This document shows, in pieces, positions 20,891 through 63,628 of a stretch of DNA of 64,000 nucleotides. Where the stretch lies: the IMG/VR virus record IMGVR_UViG_3300029305_003293, positions 54,161-118,160 of that record, one strand, 5' to 3'. The notes beneath the pieces are model-generated. The model saw nothing but the letters and a program-made list of their open reading frames with translations, was not told the origin of the DNA and made no database searches. How positions within the stretch are numbered: position 1 is the stretch's first letter; every line of letters begins with the position of its first letter. This DNA is from a virus. Lineage: Duplodnaviria; Heunggongvirae; Uroviricota; Caudoviricetes. Both the position numbers and the translations under genes were made by a program.

Positions 20891-20896
20891 TTCTGG

Positions 20897-22184: not shown

Positions 22185-22225
22185 CTTATGCATATATTAT
22201 ATCAAAAAATTTTTTAAAAGTCAAA
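22185..22225 (-). promoter_or_regulatory. sigma70-type promoter, repeated family
   Basis: Minus strand: TTGACTTTTAAAAAATTTTTTGATATAATATATGCATAAGGT. Confidence 0.6.
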
Positions 22226-33369: not shown

Positions 33370-33370
33370 T

Positions 33371-33949
33371 TTATTCCCTCACAATCCATACACCTTTTAC
33401 TTTTTCATATTCTCCAATAGTAGGAATATTCATTTTTCCGAACATTTCAGTAATAGATTTTTCTGGAACTCTTGTTCGACCTTCACGCTGTTCATTACGC
33501 TTTAAACAAACTGCGAGAGGAGTATCCATAAACACCCAATAGATCTCATATGAAAAATTGATTTCTCGCGAAAGCGCATTATACAACTTGCGGCGAGAGC
33601 CAAGATTCAAATGAGTCGCATCTGCGGTAGTATCTCCGAAACTAAGACCAAGTTTAATATTCTCGATAAACTTGTCATATACCTCGTGCTCATGCGCGAA
33701 ATAGTCATCGCCAGGCTGAAGCAACTTAAAACGAATTTCATCTCGAGATACATAATAATGATCGGGAAAATGTCGCTTAGCCCAAGTGGACTTACCACTA
33801 CCGGGCGCCCCGCACATCACATATAAACGAGGAATATCGTGGGTTATCCCGTTCGTATTCCAATTCTGTTCTTGCTTCATCAAGAAACACCCCATTCTTA
33901 AAATCTTCAAGGAATTCTTCAACTTCCAACTGGTTTCTACACTCAACAT
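33371..33949 (-). CDS. P-loop kinase, polynucleotide kinase-like
   Basis: MCGAPGSGKSTWA Walker A; adjacent to the metallophosphoesterase. Confidence 0.5.
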   Translation of the reverse strand: MLSVETSWKLKNSLKILRMGCFLMKQEQNWNTNGITHDIPRLYVMCGAPGSGKSTWAKRHFPDHYYVSRDEIRFKLLQPGDDYFAHEHEVYDKFIENIKLGLSFGDTTADATHLNLGSRRKLYNALSREINFSYEIYWVFMDTPLAVCLKRNEQREGRTRVPEKSITEMFGKMNIPTIGEYEKVKGVWIVRE

Positions 33950-34199
33950 GATTTACTGTGTGTTTACAAGTCGGACAATACATTAATTTACGATGATTCT
34001 TGCCTTTAAGTTTATTGCCAGCCCTAGCGATCGGGATACCGCGATTGCCGCAGTTAATACAATAAAAATTATGAAAATCCCAATCGCGACAGCCCTTACC
34101 CATTCTCTTCTTCCATTTTCTTCTTTTGATCGAAATAGGCAAGAACTCGATCAATACCTGTAAGCCACATTTCTCTAGCTTTGTCGGCACATTTTTCAC
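33798..34199 (-). CDS. zinc-finger protein
   Basis: Four CxxC pairs. Confidence 0.3.
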   Translation of the reverse strand: MKNVPTKLEKCGLQVLIEFLPISIKRRKWKKRMGKGCRDWDFHNFYCINCGNRGIPIARAGNKLKGKNHRKLMYCPTCKHTVNHVECRNQLEVEEFLEDFKNGVFLDEARTELEYERDNPRYSSFICDVRGAR

Positions 34200-34262
34200 A
34201 ATAATAAAGATTTAACATGGGATTATAGAATTGAGATTCTCCATTACAAAGTTCACATTTCA

Positions 34263-34562
34263 TCACCAAATATCCTCCGAATAGAGAACTGTGGGTGTAA
34301 TGGTATCATTGATATGTTCCTCAATATAGGAATCAAGAAACTGATGATACCGCACCGCTTCTTGATAAGCTTCTGTCCTCGTAAGGAACTCACCTTTTTC
34401 ATTCAGAAAACCTTGCGCAAGTTCTTTGTAATCAGAACCCTTGTAAAAACCAAATTCTTTCAGAATTTGAAAAGCATCGCAATGACGATGACAGGGGATA
34501 ATAATATCCCTTGTGCCATCTGTGTCAAAAAATTTAATTTTGACAGCTGCTCTTGTTATCAT
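34263..34562 (-). CDS. hypothetical protein
   Basis: 99-aa ORF. Confidence 0.3.
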   Translation of the reverse strand: MITRAAVKIKFFDTDGTRDIIIPCHRHCDAFQILKEFGFYKGSDYKELAQGFLNEKGEFLTRTEAYQEAVRYHQFLDSYIEEHINDTITPTVLYSEDIW

Positions 34563-34579
34563 TGATTATCCCCTTTCTT

Positions 34580-34624
34580 AACCTTACATATATATTATAT
34601 AATATTTTTTCTAATTTTTCAATT
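34580..34624 (-). promoter_or_regulatory. sigma70-type promoter, repeated family
   Basis: Minus strand: TTGAAAAATTAGAAAAAATATTATATAATATATATGTAAGGT. Confidence 0.6.
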
Positions 34625-35417
34625 AGAAGGTTGGAAGTTCTTGATTGGGAGTAAATGCAATTATATCATTTGTTTCCAAATCCAGCAAACAAATAGTATC
34701 TGTTCTAAAAGCGCAAGTATCCATATCAATCTTGTTAGGCTGATATTTCATAGGTTTCCATACTCTTGGCACTTCTTCTTCAATACAATCATAAACATAT
34801 TTTACAGGAGTATGACCGTGGATAAGAACGCGCCCTTCAATCCACTTTTCTTCAAAATGATTTCGATCCCAGAGCATATCTCGACCAGAACCCCAGTTTT
34901 CTCGCGAACAACCTGCATGACAAAAATCGTATTTTCCCATTTGAAGATTAATAGGAAGTTTAGCGATTTTACTTACAATATCAACAGGGGCACCGTCAGC
35001 AATCCAAGCTTCAATAGTAGGAACACCACCATTGCTCATATGAAGTTGAGTATCATATTCTCCGGACCACATCATATCAGCAATAGTATTAAATTGATTG
35101 GCATATTCACGAACAGTAAGACCGTCATTTGCTGCGGCGTTCTTGATCTCAAAACAAGACCGTACAAACAGATCTTCGTGATTACCCATAAGATAAATCA
35201 CATTAGGCATAGAAAGCATTTCTTTCATAATTTTATATCCATCGGGACCGCGATCACAAGCATCGCCCAGGAAGATAAGAGTTGTTTCCTCTTGTTCGAG
35301 TTCTTGTTTAACTTGCTCCCAAAGACCACCCATTCCGTGGATATCAGACATTACCAAATATCTCATATTTATCACACCTTTCATATATATTATATCAAAA
35401 ATTATAAAAAAAATCAA
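34623..35417 (-). CDS. Ser/Thr phosphatase-like metallophosphoesterase
   Basis: MSDIHGM...GDACDRGPDG...GNHED motifs. Confidence 0.65.
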   Translation of the reverse strand: MIFFIIFDIIYMKGVINMRYLVMSDIHGMGGLWEQVKQELEQEETTLIFLGDACDRGPDGYKIMKEMLSMPNVIYLMGNHEDLFVRSCFEIKNAAANDGLTVREYANQFNTIADMMWSGEYDTQLHMSNGGVPTIEAWIADGAPVDIVSKIAKLPINLQMGKYDFCHAGCSRENWGSGRDMLWDRNHFEEKWIEGRVLIHGHTPVKYVYDCIEEEVPRVWKPMKYQPNKIDMDTCAFRTDTICLLDLETNDIIAFTPNQELPTF

Positions 35418-35418
35418 A
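35378..35418 (-). promoter_or_regulatory. sigma70-type promoter, repeated family
   Basis: Minus strand: TTGATTTTTTTTATAATTTTTGATATAATATATATGAAAGG, directly after a terminator. Confidence 0.55.
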
Positions 35419-35445
35419 CGAGAGCTTAATGGCTCTCGTTTAGCT
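35413..35445 (-). terminator. rho-independent terminator
   Basis: Minus strand: AAACGAGAGCC-ATTAAG-CTCTCGTTT followed by GATTTTTTTT. Confidence 0.6.
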
Positions 35446-35564
35446 TCCGCAATTCGCGGTTAATCTTTTTAATAATATTAGCATTACCTGCGGGATCTCT
35501 CGCATCAAGAAGATGCTTACGGGTTTCCAGCTGCTTAATTCTCGTTTCCTTACTCATCCACATA

Positions 35565-36582: not shown

Positions 36583-38049
36583 TTAAGCATTACCATTTTC
36601 TTCAATGGACATTTCATCCTGTGCTTCCTCCATATCAGGTGCAGTAGCATCTTCCTTAATGATACCCTCAAGAACCTTGAAATTAAAATTCTTATGCTTG
36701 TATACTGCGATATCAGGACGATTCACAATACGAGCAACGACACCCTCACGAATATGAGTCTTGCCGATGGGGTCAGGACCATCGAAATACTGTTCTACCT
36801 TGCGGAGAACATATTCGCCAGGAGAACATACACCATAATCAGTGTCGCCAGCCTTATCAACTAGCACTTCACCCGGATTTTCAGGGATAATAAAACGCTC
36901 AAATACAGGGACAGTCTTTACGCCCATCTGTTCGCAACGCATACGCATCTGATCGGGAGACAATTCAACTACATCGCCATCCTCATTTACCTGAGTCATA
37001 CGATATACATAGACTTCACACTTAGGAGCGACAGCCAGACCATACATTCTGGCTTCAGTCAAAGTCATAGTACCAGATTCTACATCTCCAGAATCATCCA
37101 AATTCTGCCATTCATAGCTACCCTCACGGTCGCAGCCATAAGAGAACACAGTCTCTTCACCGTACTGCTTAATGAATTCCTTATCCTTGATCTTAGAATT
37201 CTTCACAGAAGCCATAATAGGAGTGTTGGCATTTACAAAACCGACGATTTCATAGTAAACGACTTCACCCTTACGGAGCTTGCCATCAAACTTTGCAGCC
37301 ATAGCAATACGGAAGTTATTGTCTTCGTAAAAACCACCATCATGCTTGCTATCCAGCACAACACGACGAGTGCCAGTTACATAATCATATTCCTTATACT
37401 GCTTACCCGGACGGCGCAGAATCTTATCCAGAATAGTGCGCTTCATCTGCTTATTGATAGGCAGATAACCGGTACGGCCAGAAGTGCCGTGCATCTTAAG
37501 AGTCAACTCAACAATATCGCCGGTCTTAAACTGGCCCAAGCTATAAGCCAACTGTGCGGTATCAACATGCTCATAGAAAGTAGGAGCGAAGTTAGCCTTA
37601 GCCTTCTTATGACAGCCACCTACAAAAACACCGCCGGAAACACGACGAGGAATATACTTACGACAAATCTCTACTCCACCAAGAGTAGTAATCTGATCTC
37701 CAACCTTCAGGTCAGAAATAGAAGTCCAATTAGCAACAGAAGTCAAGGGCATCAGTATACCATCAGACTTCTCACCGCGCAGACGGATAGCCTTAATATT
37801 ACGCTTATCAGGATCAAGATAACCGCCCGCAGGATTACCATTTTCATCCTTGCGGCGAACTAGATCATTAAAAGCGCAATACTCAGGAGACAACTGACCA
37901 TCGGTCGGGAAGTAAATCATCATCTGGCCAATCTTAGTATCCAGACCAACTACTACATCATTACCAAATACAGTAGCGATCTGAAGTCGATCAGCATTAG
38001 TATGCGGACGCAGATGTTCAATCTTTATAACATATCCACAATACGCCAT
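36583..38049 (-). CDS. RNA ligase (Rnl2-like nucleotidyltransferase) with an N-terminal tRNA-binding-like OB domain
   Basis: LKMHGTSG matches Rnl2 motif I (KxHGxN/S). The N-terminal MAYCGYVIKIEHLRPHTNADRLQ resembles an EMAP/Myf tRNA-binding domain. Confidence 0.55.
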   Translation of the reverse strand: MAYCGYVIKIEHLRPHTNADRLQIATVFGNDVVVGLDTKIGQMMIYFPTDGQLSPEYCAFNDLVRRKDENGNPAGGYLDPDKRNIKAIRLRGEKSDGILMPLTSVANWTSISDLKVGDQITTLGGVEICRKYIPRRVSGGVFVGGCHKKAKANFAPTFYEHVDTAQLAYSLGQFKTGDIVELTLKMHGTSGRTGYLPINKQMKRTILDKILRRPGKQYKEYDYVTGTRRVVLDSKHDGGFYEDNNFRIAMAAKFDGKLRKGEVVYYEIVGFVNANTPIMASVKNSKIKDKEFIKQYGEETVFSYGCDREGSYEWQNLDDSGDVESGTMTLTEARMYGLAVAPKCEVYVYRMTQVNEDGDVVELSPDQMRMRCEQMGVKTVPVFERFIIPENPGEVLVDKAGDTDYGVCSPGEYVLRKVEQYFDGPDPIGKTHIREGVVARIVNRPDIAVYKHKNFNFKVLEGIIKEDATAPDMEEAQDEMSIEENGNA

Positions 38050-38067
38050 ATGTTATTACCTCTTTTC

Positions 38068-42358: not shown

Positions 42359-43909
42359 TTACTGAATACAAGCATAACGCTCCTTATTCAGAACTTCCAT
42401 CATCAGATCATAACCAGACTTGCCGGTCATAATAGACTGGAAGATAGAAGGGCTGAAGCCGGACACATAGCTTACCTTGGAACCATCCAACATAGGAATG
42501 TTAGACTGCCGTGCGTTGACATTCCAGAAGATAAGATGAGGAACCTCATAACCTTCTGCACGCCACTGCTTAGCAATACCTTCCATAAGAGTGTCAGCCA
42601 TGTGCATCTGCTCTTCATTAGGACGCTCATTCCAATAACTGTAGTTGCCAGTTGCCCGGTCAAACTCCATATCGGAAATTACGATAATGTTTTGAGGCAG
42701 ATCTGCCTGAGACATCTTATAACGACGAGCAGTAGTGAGAAGCATATTAAATGCAGCCTCAATATTGGTATTCTGGCACAGATTAGTCGCAACGATGCGA
42801 TCAACCTTGTCGCAGAAGTCTACACCTTCACACTCAATCAACTGAGGACGAGAACTGAAGGAGATGTAATGATTAGCAAAAGGACCATTGGCCTTTTCCG
42901 CACAATACAGACCGAAAGAGACAGCAACATTCATAGGAGTGCCAAGCATAGAACCCGAAGTGTCCACCATGGCAAGAGCATTGAAGGTTGCACCATTGAA
43001 ATAATCGGTAAGATTATCCCAATACTTATTAATCATGAGACGATCAGTATTATCGAGAGCAGGCTTTTCACGACGGGCCCAAGTGTAAGACTGAGGCTGA
43101 GGCTCCATCAGATTAATAGCCTTTTCAACGACTTCGTAAGGATAAAGAGTGCCGGCATTAACCTTAGTATTCTCATCCTTAGCGAAATCAGCATAAGACT
43201 GAACATTCTCATTCTTCATACGCTCAAGATCGTGGCGAGCGAAAGCGTTCTTATAGATAAGACCAGCCTTAGAAGGGATCTTATCAAACTCAATCTCGTC
43301 CCAACGATTCTCAGACATCAACTTCTCAAGAACATTGATGCGAGTGCGCAGAGCAGCAAGAACCTTGCGGTATTCCTTATGGGTCATACCGAGATAGCTG
43401 CGAGTGATATTACCCAGACGAGTAGATTCCTTAGAAGAAGCATTCTCGCTCTTGAGCCACTTTGCCAGCAAAGAAGGAGTCTTACACTCAACATCCAGTG
43501 CAAGCTGGTGCTTCATGATGGACAAAGCATCTTCCTGAAGAGGAGTGTCGATAAAAGCATACAGATCATCCCAGCGACCGAACTCAGGGATATGCTTCAT
43601 ATTGCGGCGAATCGCCTCTCGGCTATCAGCCTGCTTTGCAGCATCAGTCAGAATGGTGCGGAAGAAACGACGCTCGCCCTGGCCACCACGCACATCTCGG
43701 ATATAGAAAAGACACTTCAGCGCATAAACAGGATTTTCCTGAAATGCCTTACGCCACATAAGGATAATATCCGACTCATCGCGCTGACGCATAGCCGCAC
43801 CCATAGCAAACATATCCATCAGATTGCTGGTAGTAGTCTTATGAGTAAGAGCGCCATTTTCAGTGAAAGTCAGATTAGTATCATTCTTCAAAGCATTAAG
43901 CATAGTCAT
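42359..43909 (-). CDS. vWA-domain protein (DUF2828/TROVE-like)
   Basis: MIDAS-like VDTSGSM. 516 aa. A 5' UTR hairpin (GCCCCTTG...CAAGGGGC) lies at 43941-43958. Confidence 0.45.
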   Translation of the reverse strand: MTMLNALKNDTNLTFTENGALTHKTTTSNLMDMFAMGAAMRQRDESDIILMWRKAFQENPVYALKCLFYIRDVRGGQGERRFFRTILTDAAKQADSREAIRRNMKHIPEFGRWDDLYAFIDTPLQEDALSIMKHQLALDVECKTPSLLAKWLKSENASSKESTRLGNITRSYLGMTHKEYRKVLAALRTRINVLEKLMSENRWDEIEFDKIPSKAGLIYKNAFARHDLERMKNENVQSYADFAKDENTKVNAGTLYPYEVVEKAINLMEPQPQSYTWARREKPALDNTDRLMINKYWDNLTDYFNGATFNALAMVDTSGSMLGTPMNVAVSFGLYCAEKANGPFANHYISFSSRPQLIECEGVDFCDKVDRIVATNLCQNTNIEAAFNMLLTTARRYKMSQADLPQNIIVISDMEFDRATGNYSYWNERPNEEQMHMADTLMEGIAKQWRAEGYEVPHLIFWNVNARQSNIPMLDGSKVSYVSGFSPSIFQSIMTGKSGYDLMMEVLNKERYACIQ

Positions 43910-43961
43910 TACGCATTTCTCCTTTTTCTCTTATAGTATGCCCCTTGGGACAAGGGGCTTT

Positions 43962-45215: not shown

Positions 45216-46020
45216 ATTAATAATAATATCTAATATTGCAAAAAGAAGTAGAAGAACTGCTATTACCTGTGGCGTCAGTATATCCACCAACATAAGAAAT
45301 AGTTTTTTCTCCGATAATATCTGAAACATCAATTGTATATTCGGCCCATGAACTACTTGTAATTGATCTATAATTTAACATCATATCAGCATAAATTACA
45401 GGAGAAGATGCTGTTAAACCGTCTGATACATAAAAACCTATATTGCCATGATCAGCATTTTTTCTTGCACAAAATTTAATTTGCTAAACATATGTTAAGT
45501 CTCTAATATCATCCCATCTTAAATAAGAAGATTTTGCACCAGAACTTGATGTTGATGAACCAACAATTGTAAAACCTGCACTTCCATCTACCTAATTTGT
45601 TAAATAAGTTGGAGAAACATTTTTAAAACCAATTGCTAAATCTGCTCTTGTTACTAAATAATTATAATTTAATTTATATTCATTAATACCAATATATTTA
45701 GCATCTAAAGAATAATTAGTATTAACTCCATTAAAACTATAAATTATATTATAAGTCCCAATTGCTGGTAAATTAAATATCCAATTGCCGGAATTATTTA
45801 TTCCTTCATATAGAATATTGTCTTTAGAAACAGTGATAGTAGCATCTAAATTAGAAGTTATTATTTTTAATGTTGGATGTAATGTATCAAGATATGATTT
45901 ATCTGAAGAAGAAAATAATCCATTTATATCTGATGTTGCATTTGGAATTACAATATGTCCTATCATATTATTAACAGATAAAACAGGCGGTGGCGGGGTT
46001 GGAGTCAAAAATCCTATCAT
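45216..46020 (-). CDS. fibre/receptor-binding-like structural protein with 2 in-frame TAG codons
   Basis: RBS GAGAGGTGA plus an ATG at 46018-46020. The track ORF 45592-46020 continues in frame through TAG (...SPTYLTN-TAG-VDGSAGFTIVG...LTYV-TAG-QIKFCARK...). It ends at a TAA, followed by a hairpin and T-tract. Confidence 0.4.
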
Positions 46021-46050
46021 TTTAATATCACCTCTCTACTTTATCTCAAA

Positions 46051-46090
46051 AAAAAAAAATAGACTGGCCTTTCCAGGCCAGTTTTTATTT
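46051..46090 (-). terminator. rho-independent terminator
   Basis: Minus strand: CTGGCC-TGGAAA-GGCCAG followed by TCTATTTTTTTTTTTT. Confidence 0.6.
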
Positions 46091-46626
46091 TAACTCAATT
46101 TTTTCCAATCGCTCGCAATACTACGACGAACATATTTACTATATGCATTTCCTGCGTGATCAAATAAAAGAGCCCAGCCATAAAAATGTTGACTATTTTG
46201 TTCGGCAATTTTATATGTATCAACAAAGAAAATACCACGGCAAGAAGAATCAACTTCTCTTGCACCTACCGGGATATCTTGACAACTGCGTTCCATATAC
46301 ATAGTATAAAGACCAGGACCAAGTTCATCCATTTTATCAACAAGCATCATATCATTTGTTGGACCAAGAGCAATTTTATGTTCACCATTTTCGCGCATAA
46401 TCTTAGCAAAAGGCATTGCGGCAAGCGCTTCCATAGTTACATAATTATCTGTTTCCTCAGCATCAGGGCAGATCCATTCACCTTTACTATTGGCCATATA
46501 CTCTTTACCATTTTCAATTACAAAACAGGTATCACCCATTGATTGAAATGGAACATTTTCTAAATCTGCAATAGTGTCTGCAATATAATGTTTATCCGTG
46601 CTTGGGGCGTATCTTTGAAAAGCCAT
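46090..46626 (-). CDS. hypothetical protein
   Basis: 178-aa ORF with no internal stops. A terminator hairpin follows at 46051-46090. Confidence 0.4.
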   Translation of the reverse strand: MAFQRYAPSTDKHYIADTIADLENVPFQSMGDTCFVIENGKEYMANSKGEWICPDAEETDNYVTMEALAAMPFAKIMRENGEHKIALGPTNDMMLVDKMDELGPGLYTMYMERSCQDIPVGAREVDSSCRGIFFVDTYKIAEQNSQHFYGWALLFDHAGNAYSKYVRRSIASDWKKLS

Positions 46627-46640
46627 AATTATTCCTCCAA

Positions 46641-47483
46641 TTAATCTAATTTATCTGCTAATCTTGCAGTAGCAGAGCGTTCTGTTGTTGGGAGATTTAC
46701 ATATTGAAAAAGAGGATCTCCAGCAAGTCTATCAACCATTCTGCGCAATCCAGAATTGTCTTCAAATACTTTTTTATCAACTTGAGAATAATCTCCTTCT
46801 ATCCAAAGGTTAGAACCTTCACCAACACGACCAATCAAAAGTTGGACATGCTGTTTAGTTAGATTCTCTGCTTCAGATGAAATAATAATTGAATTTTTAA
46901 TATCTCTGCCGCGAATAAAACCTAAATGTTGAATTTCAATTTGATTGCGGAAAATCATATCATTTACTTGTTCCATACCACCAAGATGGTCGGCGAGTGG
47001 TCCAACATATGGTGCAAGTTTTTCTTCTGCAGTTCCAGGTAGAGCACCTAAAGATACAGTATCTTTAACTTCAATATTATTACGAACCCATACAAGTTTT
47101 TCAAACTTTCCATCTAAAATCTAACTCATTGCATGTGCTACCATTAAGAAAGTTTTACCACTACCAAAACAACCAGTTAATACTTTTACTGTTGACTATT
47201 CATTTTGAAGCATATCAAATGCAAGTCGTTGTTCAATATTTCTCGGTGTGACCTTACCAAGTAAATCATTCTTAATAGGTTTATAGGTAATATGTCTATA
47301 TTTTTCACCAGTCCAGCAATAAGCATCGGCTGGATGTCCATCAGTATCCAGCACGACAAGATATTCACCAATATTAGAAAAATATATATTCCAATCTGGA
47401 TGACTATAAAAATCACTTAAATTAGGATCGTCGGCAGAAATAATCTTATAACCAGTATATCGTTCCATAATCATTCTCCTCAA
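46641..47483 (-). CDS. phoH: PhoH-like ATPase with 2 in-frame TAG codons (47196-47198 and 47121-47123)
   Basis: Track ORFs 47196-47483 and 46641-46976 join in one frame. Walker A GCFGSGKTFLMVA lies between the TAGs. The C-terminal GDYSQVD...SGL motifs are typical of PhoH. Confidence 0.65.
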
Positions 47484-48097
47484 GGTAATAAATCTGCGAT
47501 AGTATCAACAATGGCATCATATACACCGTGCTCGAGACCCTCTTGCGCTGTAATATACCAATCGCTAACAATATTTTCGGCGACTTCTTCTTCCGTATAT
47601 GAAGTTCGTTCACATACAAAGTGTGTTAATCTTTCAATTTCAGCTTGATATGCCAATACTGAAGGAAGAATTTCCGCATATGTACCAGAAAATGCGCCGC
47701 TGCCTTGATGGAATAACAATTTAGAACGTGGTAAAGTGAATCGTTTATGGCAAGAGAGTAAAATATACGCCGCGGAACTATAAGCATTACCCATATTATA
47801 ACCATATACAGGAGTCTTGCTTAAAGTGATTACATCAATTAAACTATTATTAACACTTAAATCTCCACCAGGGGAAAAGATAAATAGTTTAATTGGTTTG
47901 CGCTCTTCTGGCGGCAAGTGCTTATCCTCTTGATTCCATTGAAGAATATATTTTGTGATATATAAAGTATCTTCTCCAACTTCATCATCTAGCCAAATAA
48001 TACGGTTCTCTAAATCAGAATAATACTAAACTAAAGCGGGGTCGGGAGTTGTAAATTTTCTACTGATTTAGGAAGAGATACCAAAGTTACGTCCATT
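47480..48097 (-). CDS. ClpP-like serine protease with one in-frame TAG and an apparent -1 frame discontinuity near 48050
   Basis: FSPGGDLSVNNSLIDVI...VYGYNMGNAYSSAAYIL plus an upstream in-frame YYSDLENRIIWLDDEVGED. The ATG with RBS AAGGAGG at 48095-48097 is in the -1 frame across the heptamer A_AAT_TTA. Confidence 0.55.
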
Positions 48098-48109
48098 GGG
48101 TTTTCCTCC

Positions 48110-49054
48110 TTAACATAAGAAAGGTAAATATCCTTCCTTGATTTTTTTTATATATTCAATAACTGAATATTTTAAGATACCAGTTTGAATATCTAATTTA
48201 CAATATTCTTCGATAGGGCAGTCCAATAAATGTGAAAAAAGATTCCAAAATATTGGTAAAGCTCGCCACATATCATATAATTTACGAAGATCAGTTTCTT
48301 GATTTATGTAAATATAATATTTCATAAACCATTCTCGGACTAAATGTATAATTTGTTCATCGGTGAAACTTGGATCTTCTTTCATTTTCTAATAAGTATA
48401 TTCAAAATTTTTGAATTGTTGCCGCATATTATCATATTGAAAAGCATCATTATTTTTGTGATTATAACCATTTGGATTATAATTGTAAACACATATAATA
48501 TTATCAATATTTTGAATCTATGGGTAATAAGCATTACACCAAAAATTAAACACTAAATCTTCACTTGCTGAAATGGAACTAAAATGTATATTATGTTTAT
48601 TTAAAAAATCAAGCTTATATAATGTAGCGTGCGTCCAAACATCTACATTATTTGTAATTTCAATATCTTCTGGAGTTTTATAACGTAACATCAAGCCTTT
48701 TATGATATCAGCTTCACTATATATTGCATGTTCGTATAATACCTATAAACTATTATACCCAAATAGAACATCGTCGGCATCAAGATAATAAATATAATCC
48801 ATATTATCTTGAATAGCTGCTTGTAATCCAATGTTGCGATTAATAGCATGGCCCTAATTCGTATTATTAATAATAACTTGAATATTAATATGTGTTTTAA
48901 AGATATTAAATATATCTGAATAATCTTGATTATCGTCGATAATACAATAAAGTCGACATTGATTAACAATAGACTATATAGCAATAGATGAAAAACATTG
49001 AATCAAATAATCTCGATTATTATAAATTGTTGTTATAATTGCAATATTTTTCAT
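48110..49054 (-). CDS. family-2 glycosyltransferase (GT-A fold) with 5 in-frame TAG codons
   Basis: Read-through translation MKNIAIITTIYNNRDYLIQCFSSI...IIDDNQDYS...YYLDADD (DxD) joins the track ORF 48110-48385. RBS GAGGT precedes the ATG. Confidence 0.5.
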
Positions 49055-49109
49055 TATATACCTCAAATAAAAAAATGGGGAGAATAAAATATTTTATTCT
49101 CCCTTGTAA

Positions 49110-49989
49110 TTATTGTAATTCTTCATAAGCTTCTAATAAAAGTAAAGATCTGGCCTAATCACGGTATTCTGGTTTAATTAAATAATATACTAATGATTCA
49201 ATATAATTAATATTATTGTAATCTCGTCCTGCAATTTTAAAATGAGTGATTCCAAATTGTTGATTTAATTCCAATACTTGCTCATGAGTTAAACAAGATT
49301 TTAATTTATTTAAGCAGTCATAAAAAGTAAGAAAATCACGAGTTTCTGGTTTATAACATTGCAAAGTAATATTTCTATGTTGCTCTTGATTTAAAATATA
49401 TTGACTCTCAATTTTATAATGCAATTTACGATATGGGCATTCATCCGAGCATGCTTCAGACAACATTATCTCTAGATTTTCTGGATATAATAACTATCCT
49501 AATAAATGTGGTTTCATATTAAATCCATAGTCTAAAACAAGCATATCATTTTTACTTTTCTAATTAATTTCATTAATATCATGTAAACATAAAGAAGTAC
49601 TCCAAATAAAATTATATTTAGGAAAACGCTCATGTAAAAATTCTTTTAATTTTGGATCAGTGATAATAATAGAATTTCCATCATGCTCACAAGCCGCAGT
49701 CCATTGTAAATTTTTGAAATCATAATATGCTTCTTGCGGCAATTCACAATTTGTATAAGTATGTCGTAGATTTACTCCTAAATCATAATAATTATCACGT
49801 AAATCATATATGTCTGTAGTTTGTGCATCACAGTATTTATTTGGTTTAATAATTCTGCAACCACCCCAAATACTACCCGGTAAGCAACCATATACAGAAT
49901 CAACAATAGTGTTTTCATACATCCATTCTGGATGTGTTTTCTACAATGTCAAAAATGCCATATTTACATGATAATGACTATAATAACCC
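49110..49989 (-). CDS. Cys-rich hypothetical protein with 4 in-frame TAG codons
   Basis: Continuous frame joining the track ORFs 49560-49922 and 49155-49466 through TAGs at 49560 and 49155, with a further TAG in the N-terminal extension MLKFSIAGYYSHYHVNMAFLTL. Confidence 0.4.
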
Positions 49990-49995
49990 GCGATT

Positions 49996-50285
49996 GAAAA
50001 TTTTAACATTTTTTTTTACTCACTTATTGTATAAATTAAATTAATAATAGTATTATGTTTATTTTTATCATAGGTATATAAAATTTTACTAATATATCCA
50101 TGATATTCTTGCTACATCAATTGATTTTGAGAAACAATATTTAATGTATTTGTACCTAAAATTTTATTTAATACTTGTTGGTCTATATCATTATGTACTA
50201 ATTCAATATATGTCTCTTGTGGTTCAAAAAATATAGACATCTTTTCCGCACAAAAGTTAATATTATTAATTGAACAATTATACAT
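49996..50285 (-). CDS. hypothetical protein with one in-frame TAG
   Basis: MYNCSINNINFCAEK...; the ATG overlaps the upstream TAA (taaatg). Confidence 0.3.
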
Positions 50286-50624
50286 TTAAATATTTACTCC
50301 AAAATTATAATTAATATGGAATTTATTTACTTCCGGTTTATAATTAATATTAACATGAACAATACGCGCTGGAGCTGCGGTTTGATACACTGTGCGAGGT
50401 GCTTCAGAACCATCTTCTCCAGAATATTGTACAATTAGATTAGTAAAAGATTCTTGTGCCAAATTACGTAAGGCAGTAAATTCAGGCATTTCACCTATAT
50501 ATTCACAATTAATCCATATTGGATTTACTTCATCGCCTGGTTGAAACATAATATTAAAATTAACAAGATTTAAATGAATACCAGCAGGATTTGATTCTGT
50601 TGGTAAAATTAATGTATAAGACAT
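50286..50624 (-). CDS. hypothetical protein
   Basis: RBS GAGGAGG lies 8 nt upstream of ATG-MSYTLILPTESNPAG... Confidence 0.35.
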   Translation of the reverse strand: MSYTLILPTESNPAGIHLNLVNFNIMFQPGDEVNPIWINCEYIGEMPEFTALRNLAQESFTNLIVQYSGEDGSEAPRTVYQTAAPARIVHVNINYKPEVNKFHINYNFGVNI

Positions 50625-50628
50625 AAGT

Positions 50629-50832
50629 TTATTCCTCCTCAATATTACACAAATACTTACACTTTAAACGAAAAAATCTTCGTATTTCATAATAATCATT
50701 TTCAAAAATCAATGTTTTATTAATTTTTAATTTTTTACTTAAATGATTATTATCATAGAATATTTGAATTGTTTCAACATTACTATAATCATAGTTATTA
50801 TCAATTTCATTATTTGAATAAATTTCAAACAT
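50629..50832 (-). CDS. hypothetical protein
   Basis: 67-aa Asn/Tyr-rich ORF. Confidence 0.3.
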   Translation of the reverse strand: MFEIYSNNEIDNNYDYSNVETIQIFYDNNHLSKKLKINKTLIFENDYYEIRRFFRLKCKYLCNIEEE

Positions 50833-50936
50833 AATTGTTATAGTTGATAATTTTCCTTGTTCATCATAAGAATGTGCTTCTTCAAAAAAATTAATATTAT
50901 GATTAGTAGTAATATTATTCTATAATAATTGTGCAA

Positions 50937-51431
50937 TTAACATGATGACTCATCCTTTAATAAGGAAGTTAAAAATCGATGTGATAACTTATATGGAGTA
51001 GCACTATTATTAATAACTCCCTGCTGCTGAATAATTAAACTTTCACATTGCAAAAGTAAAGTAGATAAACTATTTTTCATTAAAACTAATTTAGATAAAT
51101 TGGATATAAGTTCTAAATATTGTTCATCATTAAACATTAAGCTATAGTTTTGTACTAATACAATAATAGCTTCATAAATAGAAAAGGCTTCCTGATCTAC
51201 TTCTTCTAATATTAATGCCGGCAATAATAGCAATCCATGTCCAAGGATTTTCTAATCTTCTTCATTTAAAGTAAATTCAAAAGTCTCATCATCAAGTTTT
51301 TGTTCTACCATTCTACAAATTTCTTTAAGTACTGGCATAAAACCTTGACAAAAAATTCTCATATTATTCGCAAGAATATAAGGATGAGTATCTAAATAAA
51401 CAATCCATTCTTTTACACTTTCAAATTCCAT
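50937..51431 (-). CDS. hypothetical protein with one in-frame TAG
   Basis: MEFESVKEWIVYLDTHPY...NEED-TAG-KILGHGLLLLPALILEEVDQ... joins the track ORF 50937-51233. Confidence 0.35.
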
Positions 51432-51435
51432 ATAA

Positions 51436-52814
51436 TTATATATTCTCCTTTTTAATAATTTCTACACAATTCGCGACTGCTGATTGTGGAATTACGTCTA
51501 AAAAATTATCTAAAGCATTAAATTCTTTTAATTTTTTTAAGATTGTAATTATTTTTATAAATTCTAAATTACAAACAGAAGGAATTGGGGTAAAAAGTTC
51601 TTTAGTAACTTCATATTGACTTCCTAAACATCCATGAATACACATTGTATTTAATAAACAAGAATTACAAATATGCTATTTAGATGGTTTCATTCCTAAA
51701 ATTGTAATTCCTATTTCTGTATTATCTGCAATAATTTCTGTAATTTCATCATTTTGATCATCTATAATAAAATGTCCAAATTTTAATTCAGGATATAATA
51801 AACGATGACAGGGGTAAATTGTTAAATCAGAAATTTTTATCATTAAATTTTCTGCTAGTGTACAAGAAAAAGCATCGGAATCATAACGTTTAAAATTAGC
51901 TGATAATATATTAAATCCACCGCTATGTATATCAGATGAAGTTAATTTCCCAATCAAAGTATCTGGATCATGATTGGCTAACTCAAATAATTGATCCATT
52001 AAAAATGAAATAAAATCTTGAAATAATAATAATTTTTCTGTTGTCCAATTATAATTTCTAACTTCTAATAAATATAAATCGTCTAAAGAAAATCCATATT
52101 TAAGAAGCATTTCTTTAAACCATAAGAAATTATTTTTCCAAACATGAATGTTTTCAGGAGAAATCATAGGATGTGGTAAACTATTACTATCTACCATAAA
52201 CTAAAATAATTTTTCATAAAAATCTTGATTTAATACATAAGTATCACTTAATGGAATGTCTAAATCTGTTTTATATTTTCTAGTAATAGCATCTGCGTAA
52301 TATCCATCTGTACTAATACTAAAATATACATCAATATTTATTTTTTTAAATTCTTGCTATATTGCTATAATTTTATTATATAATAATTGATTTTGAATAA
52401 AAGTCCCATTTGTAGGAATGGTAATATAAGCTGGTCTATCTTGCGGCTCTTCTTGATAAAAAGTTAATATGGTCTCTAATAATTTAAAACCACTCTCTTG
52501 GGCAAATAATTCTCCAGAAAAAATTTCTAAAGAAGGATGAGCCTTCTATTTTCGCAGCCATGTTAATAATAAAATTGTATTTTTAATAGCTTTGTCACCA
52601 TCAAAAGGAAAATGCTATGTATAAATATTTTCATTATTATTTTTAATATAACAATATTCACATTTTAAATTACATTTTGGAGAAAATATAATTTCTAAAG
52701 AACTTTTTGGTTTATTACTCTACCAATCTTTAATAAAATATTCATTAATTACTGTTGAAATTAAATTATCATTTAATTCTTGATAATTACTATAATTAAC
52801 ACAATGTGTCTTCA
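51436..52814 (-). CDS. radical SAM enzyme with a C-terminal SPASM-like Cys-rich domain; 6 in-frame TAG codons
   Basis: CxxxCxxC (SPKCNLKCEYCY) near the N-terminus. The frame runs through the track ORFs 51676-52197 and 51436-51645. C-terminal HICNSCLLNTMCIHGCLGS. Confidence 0.55.
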
Positions 52815-54121
52815 TAATAAGCAATTAACTCCTCTAACGCTCCATTTGCTAATAATCTAATGGTTCCTAATGGAATTACACTCGCATTATTAGTCTAAGT
52901 TCCATGTTCACCAGCATAACAAGAAATGCCGCCTGTAAATACAAACAATAAACGTTTTAATATTGGATCTATATATTTTTTATCGATCTCACCTGCAGCA
53001 ACCATTGCTAATAATAGTGAATCTAATGAACTTTCACTTAACCTGTGATTCATTTGATAAGCAGCATTTGTATATTCAATACGGTCTAACTCTTTATCAG
53101 TAAAAGCAACCTAAGTATTAATCGCGAATTTTTTATCTTTTTCGCCACCCATCATATAACTATCATACATGCGATGACAAGTCATGATATTACCCTTGTG
53201 ATCAATAACTGCAGAGCCAATTCCTGCTCCGCATCTTAATTCTGAACCAGTATAATCTAATACGCCAACAGAATCTTTCCACGAAAAAATAAAACGCTGT
53301 ATAATAGGATGACTATATTCAGGTAATTGAGTAATATCAATTTCTCTTAATTTTCTAATAAGTTTACCATAGTTAATACCATCCTATTTAGTATAATTAT
53401 ATGGTGTTACTAATGTTGGCTCTTGAGTTAAATGTAAATTAATATAATTATTATTATTAATTAACTTACGACATTTTTGTTGTAATATATCAAAAAACTA
53501 TAGCCATTTAAATAAATTATCATTCTCTAATAATTTTGGCCATCTATCGGCAGGCACAGTAGGTTTAGTGTGTAAACTCAAATAAAACTAATCACCAGAT
53601 AATGTTTTATTATTTTCGCAAGTATCCAAAATAGTCTAATAAATAATATCAGTAATGCCCTTATAACCTCTTGAGACATCAGTAATTTCAGCAGGGCCAT
53701 CCAATGAAAACTAGATTGTTAAATGAATAGGACGATCATGTAATTCACTATATTTTTTAAAATATTCTATATATGGTTTAATTCCTTTTTCATAACCCAA
53801 TAAACCATTAGTAGAAAACATAAATGTTTCTAAAAAAGGAAAAAATTCTAATAATGGTTCACAAAAAGTCGCAATTAAATCAGCATTTAAAGTTGGTTCA
53901 CCAGACCATAATGACAAACCTTTTATATTATATTTAGCTTCATTAAATTTTGTAATAATATTATTTTGAAAAGAACCATCAACAATACTGTTTCTAATTT
54001 CTTCATTGTATAAATGCATATTTGAAGGATTTTTATGAATAAAACAATATTCACAAGCTAAATTGCAACTACCCACAAACACACATTCTAAATGATCAAT
54101 CGTTTTTACTAAACTACGCAT
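52795..54121 (-). CDS. radical SAM enzyme with a SPASM-like domain; multiple in-frame TAG codons and an apparent 1-nt frame discontinuity near 53635
   Basis: CNLACEYCF (CxxxCxxC) in the track ORF 53711-54121. The downstream frame carries CGAGIGSAVIDHKGNIMTCHRM and GGISCYAGEHG Cys clusters. The TAA at 52795 overlaps the start of the next radical SAM gene. Confidence 0.5.
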
Positions 54122-54142: not shown

Positions 54143-54427
54143 TTATATACTATATAAACGTGAAATTAATTCTCCTCCACACTTTCTAAAACCGCTATAA
54201 CGAACGGAACCATTATTTCCTCCACAATGACTGCCATCGCCGCTACCTCGACTATTATGGCTTCGTACTGAACCATTGTGGCTTGTATAATTAGAGCTCC
54301 AATTAGAACCACAATGTGTATCTATCATATTTTGAGCATTAGTCTAAGCTGTAGTAAGCCATCTACCAACATCGCTCGCTTTGACTAAAGAACCTTGTGA
54401 ACCTGAAGTTAAATTCGTCCAAGCCAT
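54143..54427 (-). CDS. small Cys/Gly/Ser/Asn-rich protein, precursor-peptide-like (paralog 1), with an in-frame TAG
   Basis: RBS GGAGGAG plus ATG: MAWTNLTSGSQGSLVKASDVGRWLTTA-TAG-TNAQNMIDTHCGSNWSSNYTSHNGSVRSHNSRGSGDGSHCGGNNGSVRYSGFRKCGGELISRLYSI. Confidence 0.4.
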
Positions 54428-54738
54428 TGTACCATTTCTCCTCCACACTTATTATTAGTATAAACAGATCGATTGCTGCAATTGCTATTACCGCTACCTA
54501 CTCCATTATGACTACAATTACTGTGAGTGCCCGGTTTAGAAGTAGCATAAGATGAATTAGCAGCACTACCTATATTATTTAATTCTGTCAATAAAGCGGA
54601 TTTTAATAATGTACCTGCCGCTATAGAATTAGTCCAAGTATAAGTACTACCCGTTGTAATACGATAAGCAGATGCTATAGTATTTTTAATACTATTAACG
54701 TCAGCAGCTTGTACTTTCTAACCCTGTGTTAAAGCCAT
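54409..54738 (-). CDS. small Cys/Gly/Ser/Asn-rich protein, precursor-peptide-like (paralog 2), with an in-frame TAG at codon 7
   Basis: RBS AAGGTGGG plus an ATG at 54736-54738: MALTQG-TAG-KVQAADVNSIKNTIASAYRITTGSTYTWTNSIAAGTLLKSALLTELNNIGSAANSSYATSKPGTHSNCSHNGVGSGNSNCSNRSVYTNNKCGGEMVQWLGRI. Confidence 0.4.
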
Positions 54739-54847: not shown

Positions 54848-54890
54848 TCTTTAATTAAATTATATCATATTTTTTTTCTAAAGTCAAATG
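54848..54890 (-). promoter_or_regulatory. sigma70-type promoter upstream of the precursor-like/radical SAM gene cluster
   Basis: Minus strand: TTGACTTTAGAAAAAAAATATGATATAATTTAATTAAAG (TTGACT-N17-TATAAT). It lacks the ATATATGTAAGG extension of the other copies. Confidence 0.55.
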
Positions 54891-55589: not shown

Positions 55590-55661
55590 GACCGGAAAGG
55601 AGACTCGAACTCCTGAGTTCCACCTTGAGGGTAGCGTTCTAACCATCTGAACTATTCTGGT
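55590..55661 (-). pseudogene. atypical tRNA-like element (irregular anticodon arm, no CCA)
   Basis: Acceptor ACCAGAA/UUCCGGU with an A-C mismatch, D-arm GUUC...GAAC and T-arm AGGAG-UUCGAGU-CUCCU. The anticodon arm has either a 5-nt loop or the loop CCUCAAG (UCA or CAA). Confidence 0.35.
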
Positions 55662-56105: not shown

Positions 56106-56181
56106 TGGCTGGGGTGGTAGGGCTCGAACCTACATATGCACGGGTCAAAGCCGTGTGCCTTCACCATTTGGCGACACCCCA
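56106..56181 (-). tRNA. tRNA-Gln (anticodon UUG)
   Basis: Resembles E. coli tRNA-Gln: UGGGGUG...CACCCCA G CCA, loop CUUUGAC. Confidence 0.8.
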
Positions 56182-60170: not shown

Positions 60171-60488
60171 TCAAGATTGAGCATAACCATAATGGGTAAG
60201 AAGTTGTTCCATATTCTGCCTACCGACCGGATTCATAGTATGCAGATGGAAGCCGAGTAAGGGGTAATTAGATGAAACAATGAACTTACAAATATCATAA
60301 CCGGTCTTTTCTTCACCCAGATCATGGTCTAAGTCGATGTATACTTCGCATACATCTCGGCATTGCTCGAGAAACTCAATGGTTGCCTGATAGGACCTTG
60401 TAGTGTGAGTGCCAGCGCCCTCACAGAAAGGAATGTTCTCAAAGGGATTCTTTCGTTCATCGTCTACCCAGAGGAAAACTTTTGTCAT
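60171..60488 (-). CDS. hypothetical protein
   Basis: 105-aa ORF downstream of the promoter at 60505-60553. Confidence 0.3.
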   Translation of the reverse strand: MTKVFLWVDDERKNPFENIPFCEGAGTHTTRSYQATIEFLEQCRDVCEVYIDLDHDLGEEKTGYDICKFIVSSNYPLLGFHLHTMNPVGRQNMEQLLTHYGYAQS

Positions 60489-61161: not shown

Positions 61162-61866
61162 TTAACCCCACTGTTCTGCCATTGCTTTCGCAATTCCAGG
61201 AAAAGTTTTACTGCGAGCTTTCGCAGTTCGTGGATCACTCCATCTGATCGTCTTACCATTTTCATCATAAGCCGTATCAATAGAAGCATTTACTGAACGA
61301 CCATTTCCTGCAAGAGGGCCGCAATCAACAATTTCAGTTAGAACAAGAGGTTGAACTCCCTTCTCCCAAAGACAAGTTTTCTTGCGTGCTCTTTCGCCAA
61401 ACTCATATGGTTGAATCATTTGCGCTGGCTTTTGCGGCAGACCATATCGTTCTGCCAAATCAGGAAAATGTTCTTTCAGATAAGAACCGCTGATAATACA
61501 TACGGGATTTTCTACAACAACTTTATCGCAATCTGCCTCAAGAAATTGACAGAAAAATTCTATCGCTTCTCTTTGGCGTCCATCCGCACGCTTTGCTGCG
61601 AAATGTCTTGCGCCACTCACAGCTAAATGAGTGCAAGGTGGATGCGCAATAATCATATCCCAACGATCTTCGATCTTATGCTCTTGACCGTCCATTGTAA
61701 TAAAAGTGGTTTTACCATTTAATAGGGGTAGGACATCACCAAGAATGTGCCATTCTGGATGACCGCCACTACATTCCTAAATATCACAGGAGAAAGCTCG
61801 ATGTCCTTTTGCGCGAAACGCCTTACAGACTTCTTGACTTTCTTCACAAGCAATTAAAACATTCAT
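61162..61866 (-). CDS. DNA cytosine-5-methyltransferase-like protein with an in-frame TAG (61777-61779)
   Basis: RBS AGGAG plus ATG: MNVLIACEESQ...FSCDI-TAG-ECSGGHPEW... joined to the track ORF carrying AHPPCTHLAVSG (PC motif) and VVVENPV (ENV-like). Confidence 0.4.
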
Positions 61867-61943: not shown

Positions 61944-62036
61944 TGGCAGCCCCTCTGGGACTCGAACCCAGACTACCTCCTTCAGAGGGATATCACGGTT
62001 TTAGAGACCGGTGTTCTGCCATTGAACTAAGGGGCA
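61944..62036 (-). tRNA. amber suppressor tRNA (anticodon CUA, reads UAG), long-variable-arm type
   Basis: Acceptor UGCCCCU/AGGGGCU, discriminator G, CCA encoded. D-arm GUUC-AAUGGCA-GAAC. Anticodon stem CCGGU/ACCGU with loop CUCUAAA (U33, CUA, A37). 23-nt variable arm. T-arm CUGGG-UUCGAGU-CCCAG. U1, G73 and the CCGGU stem resemble tRNA-Gln. Confidence 0.75.
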
Positions 62037-62039
62037 TCG

Positions 62040-62085
62040 CAACCTTATATAAATATTATATCAAAAAATTTTGAAAAAGTCAATT
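62040..62085 (-). promoter_or_regulatory. sigma70-type promoter, repeated family
   Basis: Minus strand: TTGACTTTTTCAAAATTTTTTGATATAATATTTATATAAGGT, upstream of the suppressor tRNA. Confidence 0.6.
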
Positions 62086-63551: not shown

Positions 63552-63628
63552 TGGTACCGGCGACAGGATTTGAACCCGCAAAATCTTGATCCTAAGTCAA
63601 GCGCCTATGCCAATTCGGCTACGCCGGC
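63552..63628 (-). tRNA. tRNA-Leu-like (anticodon UAG, reads CUA/CUG) with an atypical short variable loop
   Basis: GCCGGCG...CGCCGGU A CCA; Leu-like D-arm GCC-GAAUUGGCAUA-GGC; stem CUUGA/UCAAG with loop CUUAGGA. It has a class I variable loop (AUUUU), unlike the other Leu tRNAs here. Confidence 0.55.

Follow-up and report, generated by a model that had tools for sequence, protein, structure and literature searches.

A putative glutamine-inserting amber suppressor tRNA with two anticodon-type arms in a Caudoviricetes genome fragment

Structure of the CUA tRNA and its relatives

The window analysed here is 64 kb (64,000 nt; positions 54,161–118,160) of the virus record IMGVR_UViG_3300029305_003293 (IMG/VR; Caudoviricetes), from a genome of probably about 165 kb, and the element under study is a 93-nt tRNA gene with anticodon CTA at 61944–62036 on the minus strand, a putative amber suppressor. 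It was called by ARAGORN, a check that an earlier note on this DNA, written from the letters alone, had proposed, and scores 52.3 bits against Rfam RF00005 (gathering threshold, 29). Of the 23 tRNAs that ARAGORN calls in the window, all on the minus strand from 55 to 64 kb, no other has a CUA anticodon, in agreement with the earlier claim that it is the sole tRNA here able to read UAG. The label ‘Pyl’ that the program attaches to it follows from the CUA anticodon alone and was rejected: the gene has 93 nt and a long extra arm, whereas tRNA-Pyl is compact, its variable loop having 3 nt and its D loop being short, and no pylS or pylBCD genes are present among the window open reading frames (ORFs) scanned.

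The RNA is modelled with five helices. The acceptor stem (UGCCCCU/AGGGGCU) has U1 opposite U72, a mismatch, and is followed by the discriminator G73 and an encoded CCA; the D stem (GUUC/GAAC) closes a 7-nt loop (AAUGGCA), the T arm is CUGGG-UUCGAGU-CCCAG, and the acceptor/T branch is of the standard 7/5 type. The first (5′) anticodon-type arm, presumed to decode UAG, lies at 61995–62011 (minus strand); its stem (CCGGU/ACCGU) consists of four Watson-Crick pairs and a C27.U43 mismatch, and its loop, CUCUAAA, presents CUA at 62004–62002 with U33, A37 and A38. Between this arm and the T arm is a 23-nt segment, GAUAUCCCUCUGAAGGAGGUAGU, containing a second (3′) anticodon-type arm at 61976–61992 (minus strand; stem UAUCC/GGAGG), whose 7-nt loop CUCUGAA (61987–61981) carries the Gln triplet CUG at 61985–61983. 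The earlier note had described the 7-nt loop CUCUAAA (U33, CUA, A37) on a CCGGU/ACCGU stem, well-formed acceptor, D and T arms with encoded CCA, and Gln-like U1 and G73, all of which are found here, although the U1.U72 mismatch had gone unmentioned. Its likening of the 23-nt arm to those of Ser, Leu and Tyr tRNAs does not hold, as the D arm is of class I type and the extra arm matches a tRNA-Gln anticodon arm (see below).

Relatives were collected by exact searches with the CUA arm, which gave 10 loci in IMG/VR, seven of them with CUA tRNAs of 92–95 nt, and at least 120 loci in JGI metagenomes; syntenic relatives found through their proteins were added, and the extra arm was a probe in neither route. 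The sampling yielded at least 98 distinct CUA tRNAs, with three body types: eight short, six true class II and at least 84 resembling that of the window. The last group comes from viral, metagenome and ENA/Logan contigs and includes one tRNA of the human-gut phage phAss-1. As the sample was seeded on one CUA arm, the frequency of the two-arm design among all phage suppressors lies outside its scope. None of 80 IMG/VR loci chosen through the methylase-like gene that neighbours the suppressor has a CUA tRNA.

Across 63 aligned relatives, 90.0% of cells are paired under the five-helix model, compared with 69.3% in shuffles (0 of 500 reaching 90.0%), 22 pairs show double-sided changes, and the covariation score is 0.537, falling to 0.14 or less once the partners are slid. 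The CUA arm itself is uninformative in this respect because it was the search seed. The minimum free energy (MFE) fold of the isolated 93-nt RNA differs from the cloverleaf (−31.5 vs −27.1 kcal/mol; z = −1.2), as is common for tRNAs; the covariation across relatives supports the predicted cloverleaf over the MFE fold.

Conservation is pronounced in the second arm. Y-Y-U-G is found at the centre of the extra segment in 84/84 sampled relatives, the triplet being CUG or UUG in all of them with no other variation, and the loop can be written C/U-U-C/U-U-G-A-A/C (common forms CUCUGAA, CUCUGAC and CUUUGAA). The three closing pairs are 97–100% paired in the 63 aligned sequences, with 45 compensatory cells, and one of them takes all four Watson-Crick forms (CG 43, AU 10, GC 8, UA 2); the core of the loop, U-Y-U-G-A, is conserved throughout. 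Two other explanations of the segment were discarded: an alternative register (CCUCU/GGAGG with a GAA triloop) has five compensatory cells and is broken in 18/63 sequences, and the Shine-Dalgarno-like GGAGG belongs to a strand that covaries with its partner and is not kept as GGAGG.

The loop corresponds to that of genuine tRNA-Gln genes, 37 of which are present in the same loci (loops CUUUGAC 23, CUCUGAC 6, CUCUGAA 2, CUUUGAA 2). The ordinary tRNA-Gln(UUG) of the window (56106–56181, minus strand) has the anticodon arm CACGG-CUUUGAC-CCGUG, and the suppressors at L018 and L106, two of the relatives, have as their second arm CACGG-CUCUGAC-CCGUG, this same arm with one base changed. When the 17-nt CUA hairpin is deleted in silico, ARAGORN calls the window tRNA as tRNA-Gln(ctg), and nearly all long members as tRNA-Gln(ctg or ttg); the 3–5 nt left between the second arm and the T stem are as long as the variable loop of class I tRNAs. 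In a search of 185,579 bacterial and archaeal genomes, no tRNA was found to carry the exact 20-mer of this arm; its two chance matches there lie in a ribosome-binding-site context and inside a coding region, which argues against a cellular tRNA as the origin of this exact arm. Judged by loop, stem and covariation, the extra arm is a conserved copy of the tRNA-Gln anticodon stem-loop and not a class II arm, and there is little doubt that the suppressor has a two-arm architecture. The earlier note had named, as evidence against a suppressor, a fold placing another triplet at positions 34–36. Such a fold does formally exist, with CUG at these positions when the CUA hairpin is ignored, and it does change what the molecule is; the suppressor reading nevertheless stands, since Gln would be delivered through either arm and UAG has to be read in this genome.

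Two further loci are of note. At one (L019:640–760) a two-arm suppressor is represented by its 3′ portion alone (second arm and T arm, with the 3′ strand of the acceptor); a matching 5′ half is absent, and this may be a decayed copy or an integration-site remnant. A metagenome contig with a JGI-style name (L158:4010–4099) carries a 90-nt tRNA-Gln(UUG) with a long, non-anticodon-like variable arm (UAAAGGGAAACCUUUCA), which is another class II-shaped Gln tRNA.

For the acceptor end, the yardstick is the identity set of E. coli glutaminyl-tRNA synthetase (GlnRS), comprising G73, a weak 1–72 pair, G2–C71, G3–C70, G10, Y34-U35-G36 and A37, rules that may not be those of the host. The window tRNA carries G2–C71 and G10 in addition to the features noted above. 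Among 84 sampled relatives, G73 is found in 77 and G10 in 83, and the 1–72 pair is UA in 23, AC in 22, UU in 18 and AU in 17, a mismatch in 41 and never G–C. Genuine tRNA-Gln genes of these loci have the same acceptor feature set as the suppressor family and, by this comparison, the acceptor end of the suppressor is of tRNA-Gln type.

The CUA arm (CCGGU-CUCUAAA-ACCG; 17–18 nt) is the sole anticodon arm of the short and the class II-type CUA tRNAs, and a single base change (C35 to U) separates it from its counterpart in phage tRNA-Trp(CCA) genes of these loci, the C27.U43 mismatch being common to the CUA arm and the window’s own tRNA-Trp. Because it is shared by several tRNA bodies and is close to the tRNA-Trp arm, it looks like a decoding module suited to codons starting with U. 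At one locus (L162:12232–12538) the arm is found on three tandem CUA tRNAs whose D arms are of true class II (Ser-like) form and which have G73 and a long variable arm of the ordinary kind; L153, L204 and L226 also have class II-type CUA tRNAs that carry it. Such tRNAs may serve a different phage lineage by inserting Ser at UAG, or the CUA arm may move between bodies. In phAss-1 (OQ749652; L229:5910–6078) a 75-nt Gln-like CUA tRNA and a 91-nt two-arm CUA tRNA are 6 nt apart, both labelled tRNA-TERM / tRNA-Sup-CTA in GenBank, and a short CUA tRNA also lies beside a two-arm one at L142 and L115.

TAG as a sense codon and the residue inserted

The window has a G+C content of 35.6%, with the minus strand coding for almost all of its genes. 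From 1 to 44 kb, its large ORFs specify an anaerobic ribonucleotide reductase (NrdD), DNA polymerase, Dda-like and DnaB-like helicases, RecJ, primase, ligase, two topoisomerase II subunits, RNA ligase and phosphoesterases, a stretch devoted to phage replication and nucleotide metabolism; structural and lysis genes are absent from the 64-kb window. With TAA and TGA taken as the sole stops, 45 in-frame TAGs are found within 17 minus-strand ORFs, and 45 ORFs have none. Those TAG-free ORFs that have PHROG annotations belong to replication and nucleotide metabolism (including DNA polymerase, helicases, primase, ligase, topoisomerase II and NrdD), while the 17 TAG-containing ORFs are accessory genes, full length only on TAG read-through, with TAG concentrated at 45–54 kb, 20.5–21.5 kb and 61.2–61.9 kb.

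The main TAG-using block (45217–54121, minus strand) includes two radical-SAM genes (seven and six TAGs), a U32-peptidase-like gene (four TAGs; weak Pfam match, under the curated cut-off), a GT2 glycosyltransferase gene (five TAGs) and a PhoH-like ATPase gene (two TAGs; Pfam E = 1.4e-39), among others. One TAG is present in an HNH-like gene, again with a weak Pfam match under the curated cut-off. Directly downstream of the suppressor tRNA, a methylase-like gene (61162–61866, minus strand) has TAG at codon 30 and is intact only with read-through. TAG is thus a sense codon in part of the genome, a split also described in alternatively coded phages (Borges et al., 10.1101/2021.08.26.457843). In the relatives, a radical-SAM gene that needs the alternative code occurs together with this type of tRNA at L017, L018 and L106, while L015, L107 and L108 have a standard-code radical-SAM gene and no CUA tRNA in the ~21 kb of sequence covered for each. 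The six-frame gain in ORF length with TAG as sense, compared between loci with and without the tRNA, was uninformative, as base composition differs between the two sets.

A sigma-70-type promoter-like site (TTGACT-17 nt-TATAAT, with TG before the −10; 62055–62083, minus strand) lies upstream of the suppressor, with 11/12 consensus matches and an extended −10, the best match in the 10-kb island; its −10 ends 19 nt before the tRNA 5′ end. The earlier note had placed a consensus phage promoter here: a strong promoter-like site is indeed present, of host sigma-70 type and not phage-specific. The exact motif has three copies in the window, where shuffles predict 0.16, and the other two (54859–54887 and 22196–22224, both minus strand) are each directly upstream of a TAG-containing region, the former preceded by a strong terminator-like hairpin (55027–54992). 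This distribution of one exact motif, ahead of the suppressor and of two TAG-containing regions, hints at a promoter class common to the suppressor and the TAG-containing genes.

What is inserted at TAG was approached through aligned homologs and codon usage. In the radical-SAM protein encoded at 52796–54121, one of the seven TAG columns is Q in 18/18 homologs (motif I-Q-FSLDGP), and over all seven columns Q is the commonest residue (45/126 cells; S, 5/126). The homolog at L015 reads correctly under the standard code, so that its Q residues are genuine CAA codons, and CAA there stands opposite eight window TAGs, namely that of the 18/18 column and seven others. In the methylase TAG column, 120 homologs have I in 58, Q in 27, E in 10, L in 9, V in 8, M in 7 and A in one, with no S; the nearest methylase relatives carry TAG at this position at the DNA level. 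The Q shown for the nearest homologs (P0001–P0004) was therefore discarded as evidence, the DNA having TAG and the Q coming from alternative-code gene calling, and a PDB PhoH alignment (3b85) was too distant to inform the TAG columns.

A likelihood test, in which substitution spectra of the 20 amino acids, taken from the same alignments, were fitted to the TAG-aligned residues, places Gln first in two independent sets, with a lead over the runner-up of 16 log units for the close relative L017 and of 8 for three distant relatives (L011, L015 and L018 together). Ser is 22–23 log units behind Gln in each set, with Tyr, Leu and Trp further behind; with the four relatives pooled, Ser trails Gln by 50 log units, Tyr by 65 and Leu by 82. 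Codon usage points the same way. TAG-containing genes have 105 CAA, 19 CAG and 45 TAG codons and TAG-free genes 233 CAA and 177 CAG, giving CAG shares of CAA+CAG of 15% and 43%, respectively (Fisher p = 6e-9); when TAG is counted with CAG the shares are 38% vs 43% and the difference is gone (p = 0.27), and TAG thus appears to have taken the place of CAG in TAG-using genes. Metaproteomics of other gut phages has found TAG to be read as Gln (PMC9523058), and 28/29 phage tRNA-CUAs assayed inserted Gln in E. coli extract (PMC12636597). It is highly likely, on these comparisons, that UAG is read as Gln in the phage of the window. The fit of the TAG-aligned residues and the depletion of CAG where TAG is used decide in favour of this option, which the earlier note had raised from the resemblance to tRNA-Gln, and against the Ser or Leu reading that it had kept alongside, the residues in relatives fitting Ser, Leu and Tyr poorly.

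Charging of the suppressor and competing explanations

The phage tRNA would let the ribosome read UAG as glutamine, making TAG usable as a sense codon in a subset of genes. Transcription would start from the strong host-type promoter 19 nt upstream and give a short 5′ leader for RNase P, and the first arm would pair with UAG; a CUCUAAA-type loop and its stem context (A37, A38) have long been associated with efficient amber suppression. Neither a synthetase nor a release factor nor a YqeY-type protein was found among the window ORFs scanned, including small ORFs of the tRNA island, so charging would depend on the host. Enzymes that charge Gln, either GlnRS or a non-discriminating glutamyl-tRNA synthetase (GluRS) with GatCAB, depend heavily on anticodon bases 34–36. 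The CUA arm has A36 without the Gln-type G36, and the second arm, with C-U-G-A, could supply the G36-containing Gln anticodon that is missing there, while the weak or mismatched 1–72 pair, G73, G2–C71 and G10 would provide acceptor-side identity. The outcome would be efficient Gln charging by host GlnRS, or by GluRS and GatCAB, together with UAG decoding through the other arm.

We infer that the CUA arm decodes UAG and that host enzymes charge the tRNA with Gln. An identity role of the second arm in charging is tentative, with doubts slightly outweighing support, and the statement as a whole, a Gln-inserting UAG reader with two arms of which the second serves charging, is favoured by a little. 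In one relative (L104:1165–1602), a gene for a 145-aa YqeY protein (GatB C-terminal tail-like, tRNA-Gln-binding) is located ~450 nt downstream of the two-arm suppressor.

A more specific form of this mechanism, which is rather unlikely, is a ‘two-headed’ tRNA in which either arm of one molecule stacks under the D arm. Stacking of the CUG arm would make it an ordinary tRNA-Gln, which GlnRS would charge and which could perhaps also read CAG; stacking of the CUA arm, with the CUG arm then pointing outward in the manner of a class II extra arm, would let it read UAG. As both states would carry Gln there would be no miscoding, and the suppressor would avoid the penalty of the lost G36.

Several points weigh against this explanation as a whole. 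Every functional step assigned to the suppressor is inferred from comparison of sequences. The window tRNA has C3–G70 where E. coli tRNA-Gln has G3–C70 (among the 84 relatives, C–G in 63 and G–C in 20). The second-arm segment in isolation folds (RNAfold) into the GAA-triloop register in many members, and by whole-sequence similarity the hairpin-deleted tRNA shows weak Gln enrichment, with 7 of the top 30 matches. On the side of the inserted residue, Q is commonest in only 4/7 radical-SAM TAG columns, and many Q residues in database entries of close relatives come from code-15 gene calling, these being excluded where the DNA could be checked. In the known GlnRS–tRNA complex the enzyme reads the anticodon at the tip of the anticodon arm, a site that an arm at the variable-loop position would not obviously reach, and an identity role therefore needs a switch of the arms under the D arm or a binding mode other than the known one. 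Finally, short one-armed CUA tRNAs lie beside long ones in phAss-1, L115 and L142, and supE, a one-armed Gln amber suppressor, works without a second arm; the second arm is thus not strictly required for Gln charging.

The strongest alternative is an ordinary supE-like Gln suppressor in which the second arm is a leftover or folding aid with no identity role, left for example by a suppressor-type hairpin that may have been inserted into, or duplicated within, a tRNA-Gln gene, with charging through the acceptor end and U35 alone, as in E. coli supE. It is less probable than not, though it deserves serious weight. The tRNA-Tyr and tRNA-Gln suppressor genetics established that G73, a mismatched 1–72 pair, G2–C71 and G10 already favour GlnRS, and the window tRNA has all four. 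One-armed CUA tRNAs whose acceptor ends are Gln-like are found in these phage groups too, at times next to a long one, and E. coli enzymes charge 28/29 phage tRNA-CUAs with Gln (PMC12636597). Had the arm been a leftover, however, decay or loss would be expected in some of the 84 lineages, whereas the loop core is kept through many compensatory stem changes, even at the pair that takes all four Watson-Crick types, and varies between the two Gln anticodons, CUG and UUG, only. A conserved loop on a changing stem points to selection on the loop sequence itself, and not just on a hairpin.

That conservation shows selection and not which factor reads the loop, so that the second arm could instead bind something else, such as a tRNA-modifying enzyme or a phage factor, or act in GlnRS titration or as a decoy for a host defence nuclease directed at the anticodon loop of tRNA-Gln, with UAG still read as Gln. 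This is improbable. RNA-repair sets in other phages often accompany tRNA damage and repair, tRNA-targeting defence and counter-defence, and the window has an RNA-repair-like set on the minus strand (36586–38052, 42362–43930, 60171–60488 and 32761–35459) comprising RNA ligase, a Ro/TROVE-like DUF2828 protein, cREC_REC, a receiver domain linked to cyclic-phosphate processing, and phosphoesterases; the YqeY/GatB-tail-domain gene near the suppressor copy at L104 could also be cited in its favour. On the other side, we know of no nuclease that targets the tRNA-Gln anticodon, none was identified in this analysis, no such factor is encoded among the ORFs scanned in the tRNA island of the window, and the Gln-charging machinery is the simplest reader of a Gln anticodon loop.

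It is very improbable that the gene is a plain tRNA-Gln(CUG) with an inert or regulatory hairpin, reading CAG only, and that TAG read-through takes another route. Such a tRNA agrees with what ARAGORN calls once the CUA hairpin is taken out, tRNA-Gln(ctg), and with the standard position of the second arm relative to the T arm, but the genome needs a UAG reader and the window has no CUA tRNA other than this one, the hairpin is a full 5-bp arm with a 7-nt loop that serves other CUA tRNAs as their only anticodon arm, CAG is nearly absent from TAG-using genes, and recoded relatives carry the tRNA.

A class II-derived suppressor charged by SerRS, LeuRS or TyrRS, with TAG as Ser, Leu or Tyr, could account for the 23-nt extra arm, for G73 (also the Ser discriminator) and for the true class II CUA tRNAs with the same arm at L162, L153, L204 and L226, but is hardly credible given a 4-bp D stem and 7-nt D loop unlike those of the window’s Ser, Leu and Tyr tRNAs, the absence of the A73 of Leu and Tyr identity, the far worse likelihood of Ser, Leu and Tyr than of Gln at TAG-aligned positions, the scarcity of Ser (0/120 in the methylase column, 5/126 in the radical-SAM columns) and a codon-usage shift specific to CAG.

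Known suppressors and other features of the window

Suppressor tRNAs in phages that use TAG for Gln are already known, and it is the two-arm architecture that seems undescribed. The tRNA-Sup(CUA) of code 15 phages (crAss-like, Lak, Phassvirus; 10.1101/2021.08.26.457843, PMC9523058, PMC10607447) shares with the window tRNA its place in a phage tRNA cluster and the CUA anticodon, and these phages likewise have TAG at Gln positions in part of the genome and no dedicated synthetase. The 91-nt ‘tRNA-Sup-CTA’ of phAss-1 (OQ749652) is a member of the same two-arm family, whereas many published code 15 suppressors are ordinary tRNAs of 72–76 nt, compared with the 93-nt two-arm tRNA here. An extra arm or a Gln anticodon loop is not mentioned in the papers on recoded phages that were searched, where suppressors are treated simply as such. 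No description of a second anticodon-type arm or of a class II-like tRNA-Gln was found in a search of open-access papers and bioRxiv that took in these papers, a 2025 functional screen of 213 phage suppressors and a 2020 review of non-canonical natural tRNAs; an earlier description elsewhere is possible.

Among classical suppressors, E. coli supE (glnV44) shares with the window tRNA Gln at UAG, a weak 1–72 pair, G73, G2–C71 and G10. It is charged by host GlnRS despite the lost G36 and arose by a point change in its only anticodon arm, whereas the window tRNA keeps an intact Gln anticodon arm together with a separate CUA arm, and has C3–G70 and U1.U72. E. coli su+7 is a tRNA-Trp with CUA which, in classical genetics, is charged mainly with Gln; the CUA arm here is likewise near the tRNA-Trp(CCA) arm, with Gln at UAG in both, but the body and acceptor end of the window tRNA are Gln-like and not Trp-like, and a second arm is added. 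The likeness of the CUA and Trp arms may reflect a shared context preference of anticodons ending in A36. Class II tRNAs (Ser, Leu, Tyr; supD, supF) and tRNA-Sec share a long stem-loop between the anticodon and T arms, and tRNA-Ser also G73; the window tRNA differs in its class I D arm, 7-nt anticodon-like loop, 3–5 nt to the T stem and residue Gln. SerRS is reported to read the orientation and not the sequence of the extra arm (PMC7609411). Allo-tRNAs and other non-canonical tRNAs (PMC5389517, PMC7609411) are also metagenomic and off the standard cloverleaf, some with CUA and long extra arms, but allo-tRNAs have 8/4 or 9/3 acceptor/T branches and Ser identity, as opposed to 7/5 and a Gln anticodon arm as the extra arm.

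A class I body whose variable position holds an anticodon-type arm, with five helices in all, would be an unusual tRNA architecture. The family is large, and its members are short enough to be made synthetically with ease. In alternatively coded phages dedicated synthetases are rarely found, and the host GlnRS is supposedly repurposed (Borges et al., 10.1101/2021.08.26.457843); a Gln anticodon arm beside a CUA arm suggests a testable answer to how host enzymes charge phage suppressors. If the two-headed arrangement were true, it would be a new separation of tRNA identity from decoding, evolved in phages and spread over many gut and rumen phage lineages; if the second arm is inert, this is one more code-15 phage suppressor with an odd insertion. 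Annotation may assign two-arm genes wrongly to Pyl, Ser-like or ‘TERM’ tRNAs, and the architecture bears on code prediction for viromes and on the design of efficient or orthogonal suppressor tRNAs.

A close phage relative was not found in GenBank, megablast of window 44–64 kb giving only short tRNA matches, and no relatives of the TAG-rich proteins were found in IMG/VR; related contigs of 160–170 kb are present in ENA and Logan assemblies. The gene with a GIY-YIG domain (20528–21502, minus strand), preceded by the promoter motif at 22196–22224, is among the most TAG-rich, with six in-frame TAGs and no CAG. Group I intron endonuclease is among the families preferentially recoded in TGA-recoded Agate phages (Borges et al., 10.1101/2021.08.26.457843). 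Directly upstream of the radical-SAM genes are two small ORFs with Ser/Asn/Gly/Cys-rich C-terminal halves (window 54143–54738 and 51436–54121, minus strand), and a gene nearby in the relative at L015 matches PF27846 (tSAM_targ_Cxxx_rpt); the region may be a phage cluster for radical-SAM-modified peptides, partly written with TAG codons.

Two other tRNAs of the island are atypical. A 72-nt tRNA with anticodon UCA (55590–55661, minus strand), called ‘tRNA-SeC’ by ARAGORN and a possible opal suppressor, has C33 for U33, an A4.C69 mismatch, no encoded CCA and an Rfam score of 44.5 bits, and is kept in a close relative (L017:8517–8587); there is no sign of TGA recoding, since TGA still terminates 18 of the 62 listed ORFs. 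The tRNA with Leu anticodon UAG (63552–63628, minus strand) is 77 nt long and lacks a long variable arm, while its D arm matches that of the adjoining class II tRNA-Leu(GAG), and it looks like a class I-shaped Leu tRNA.

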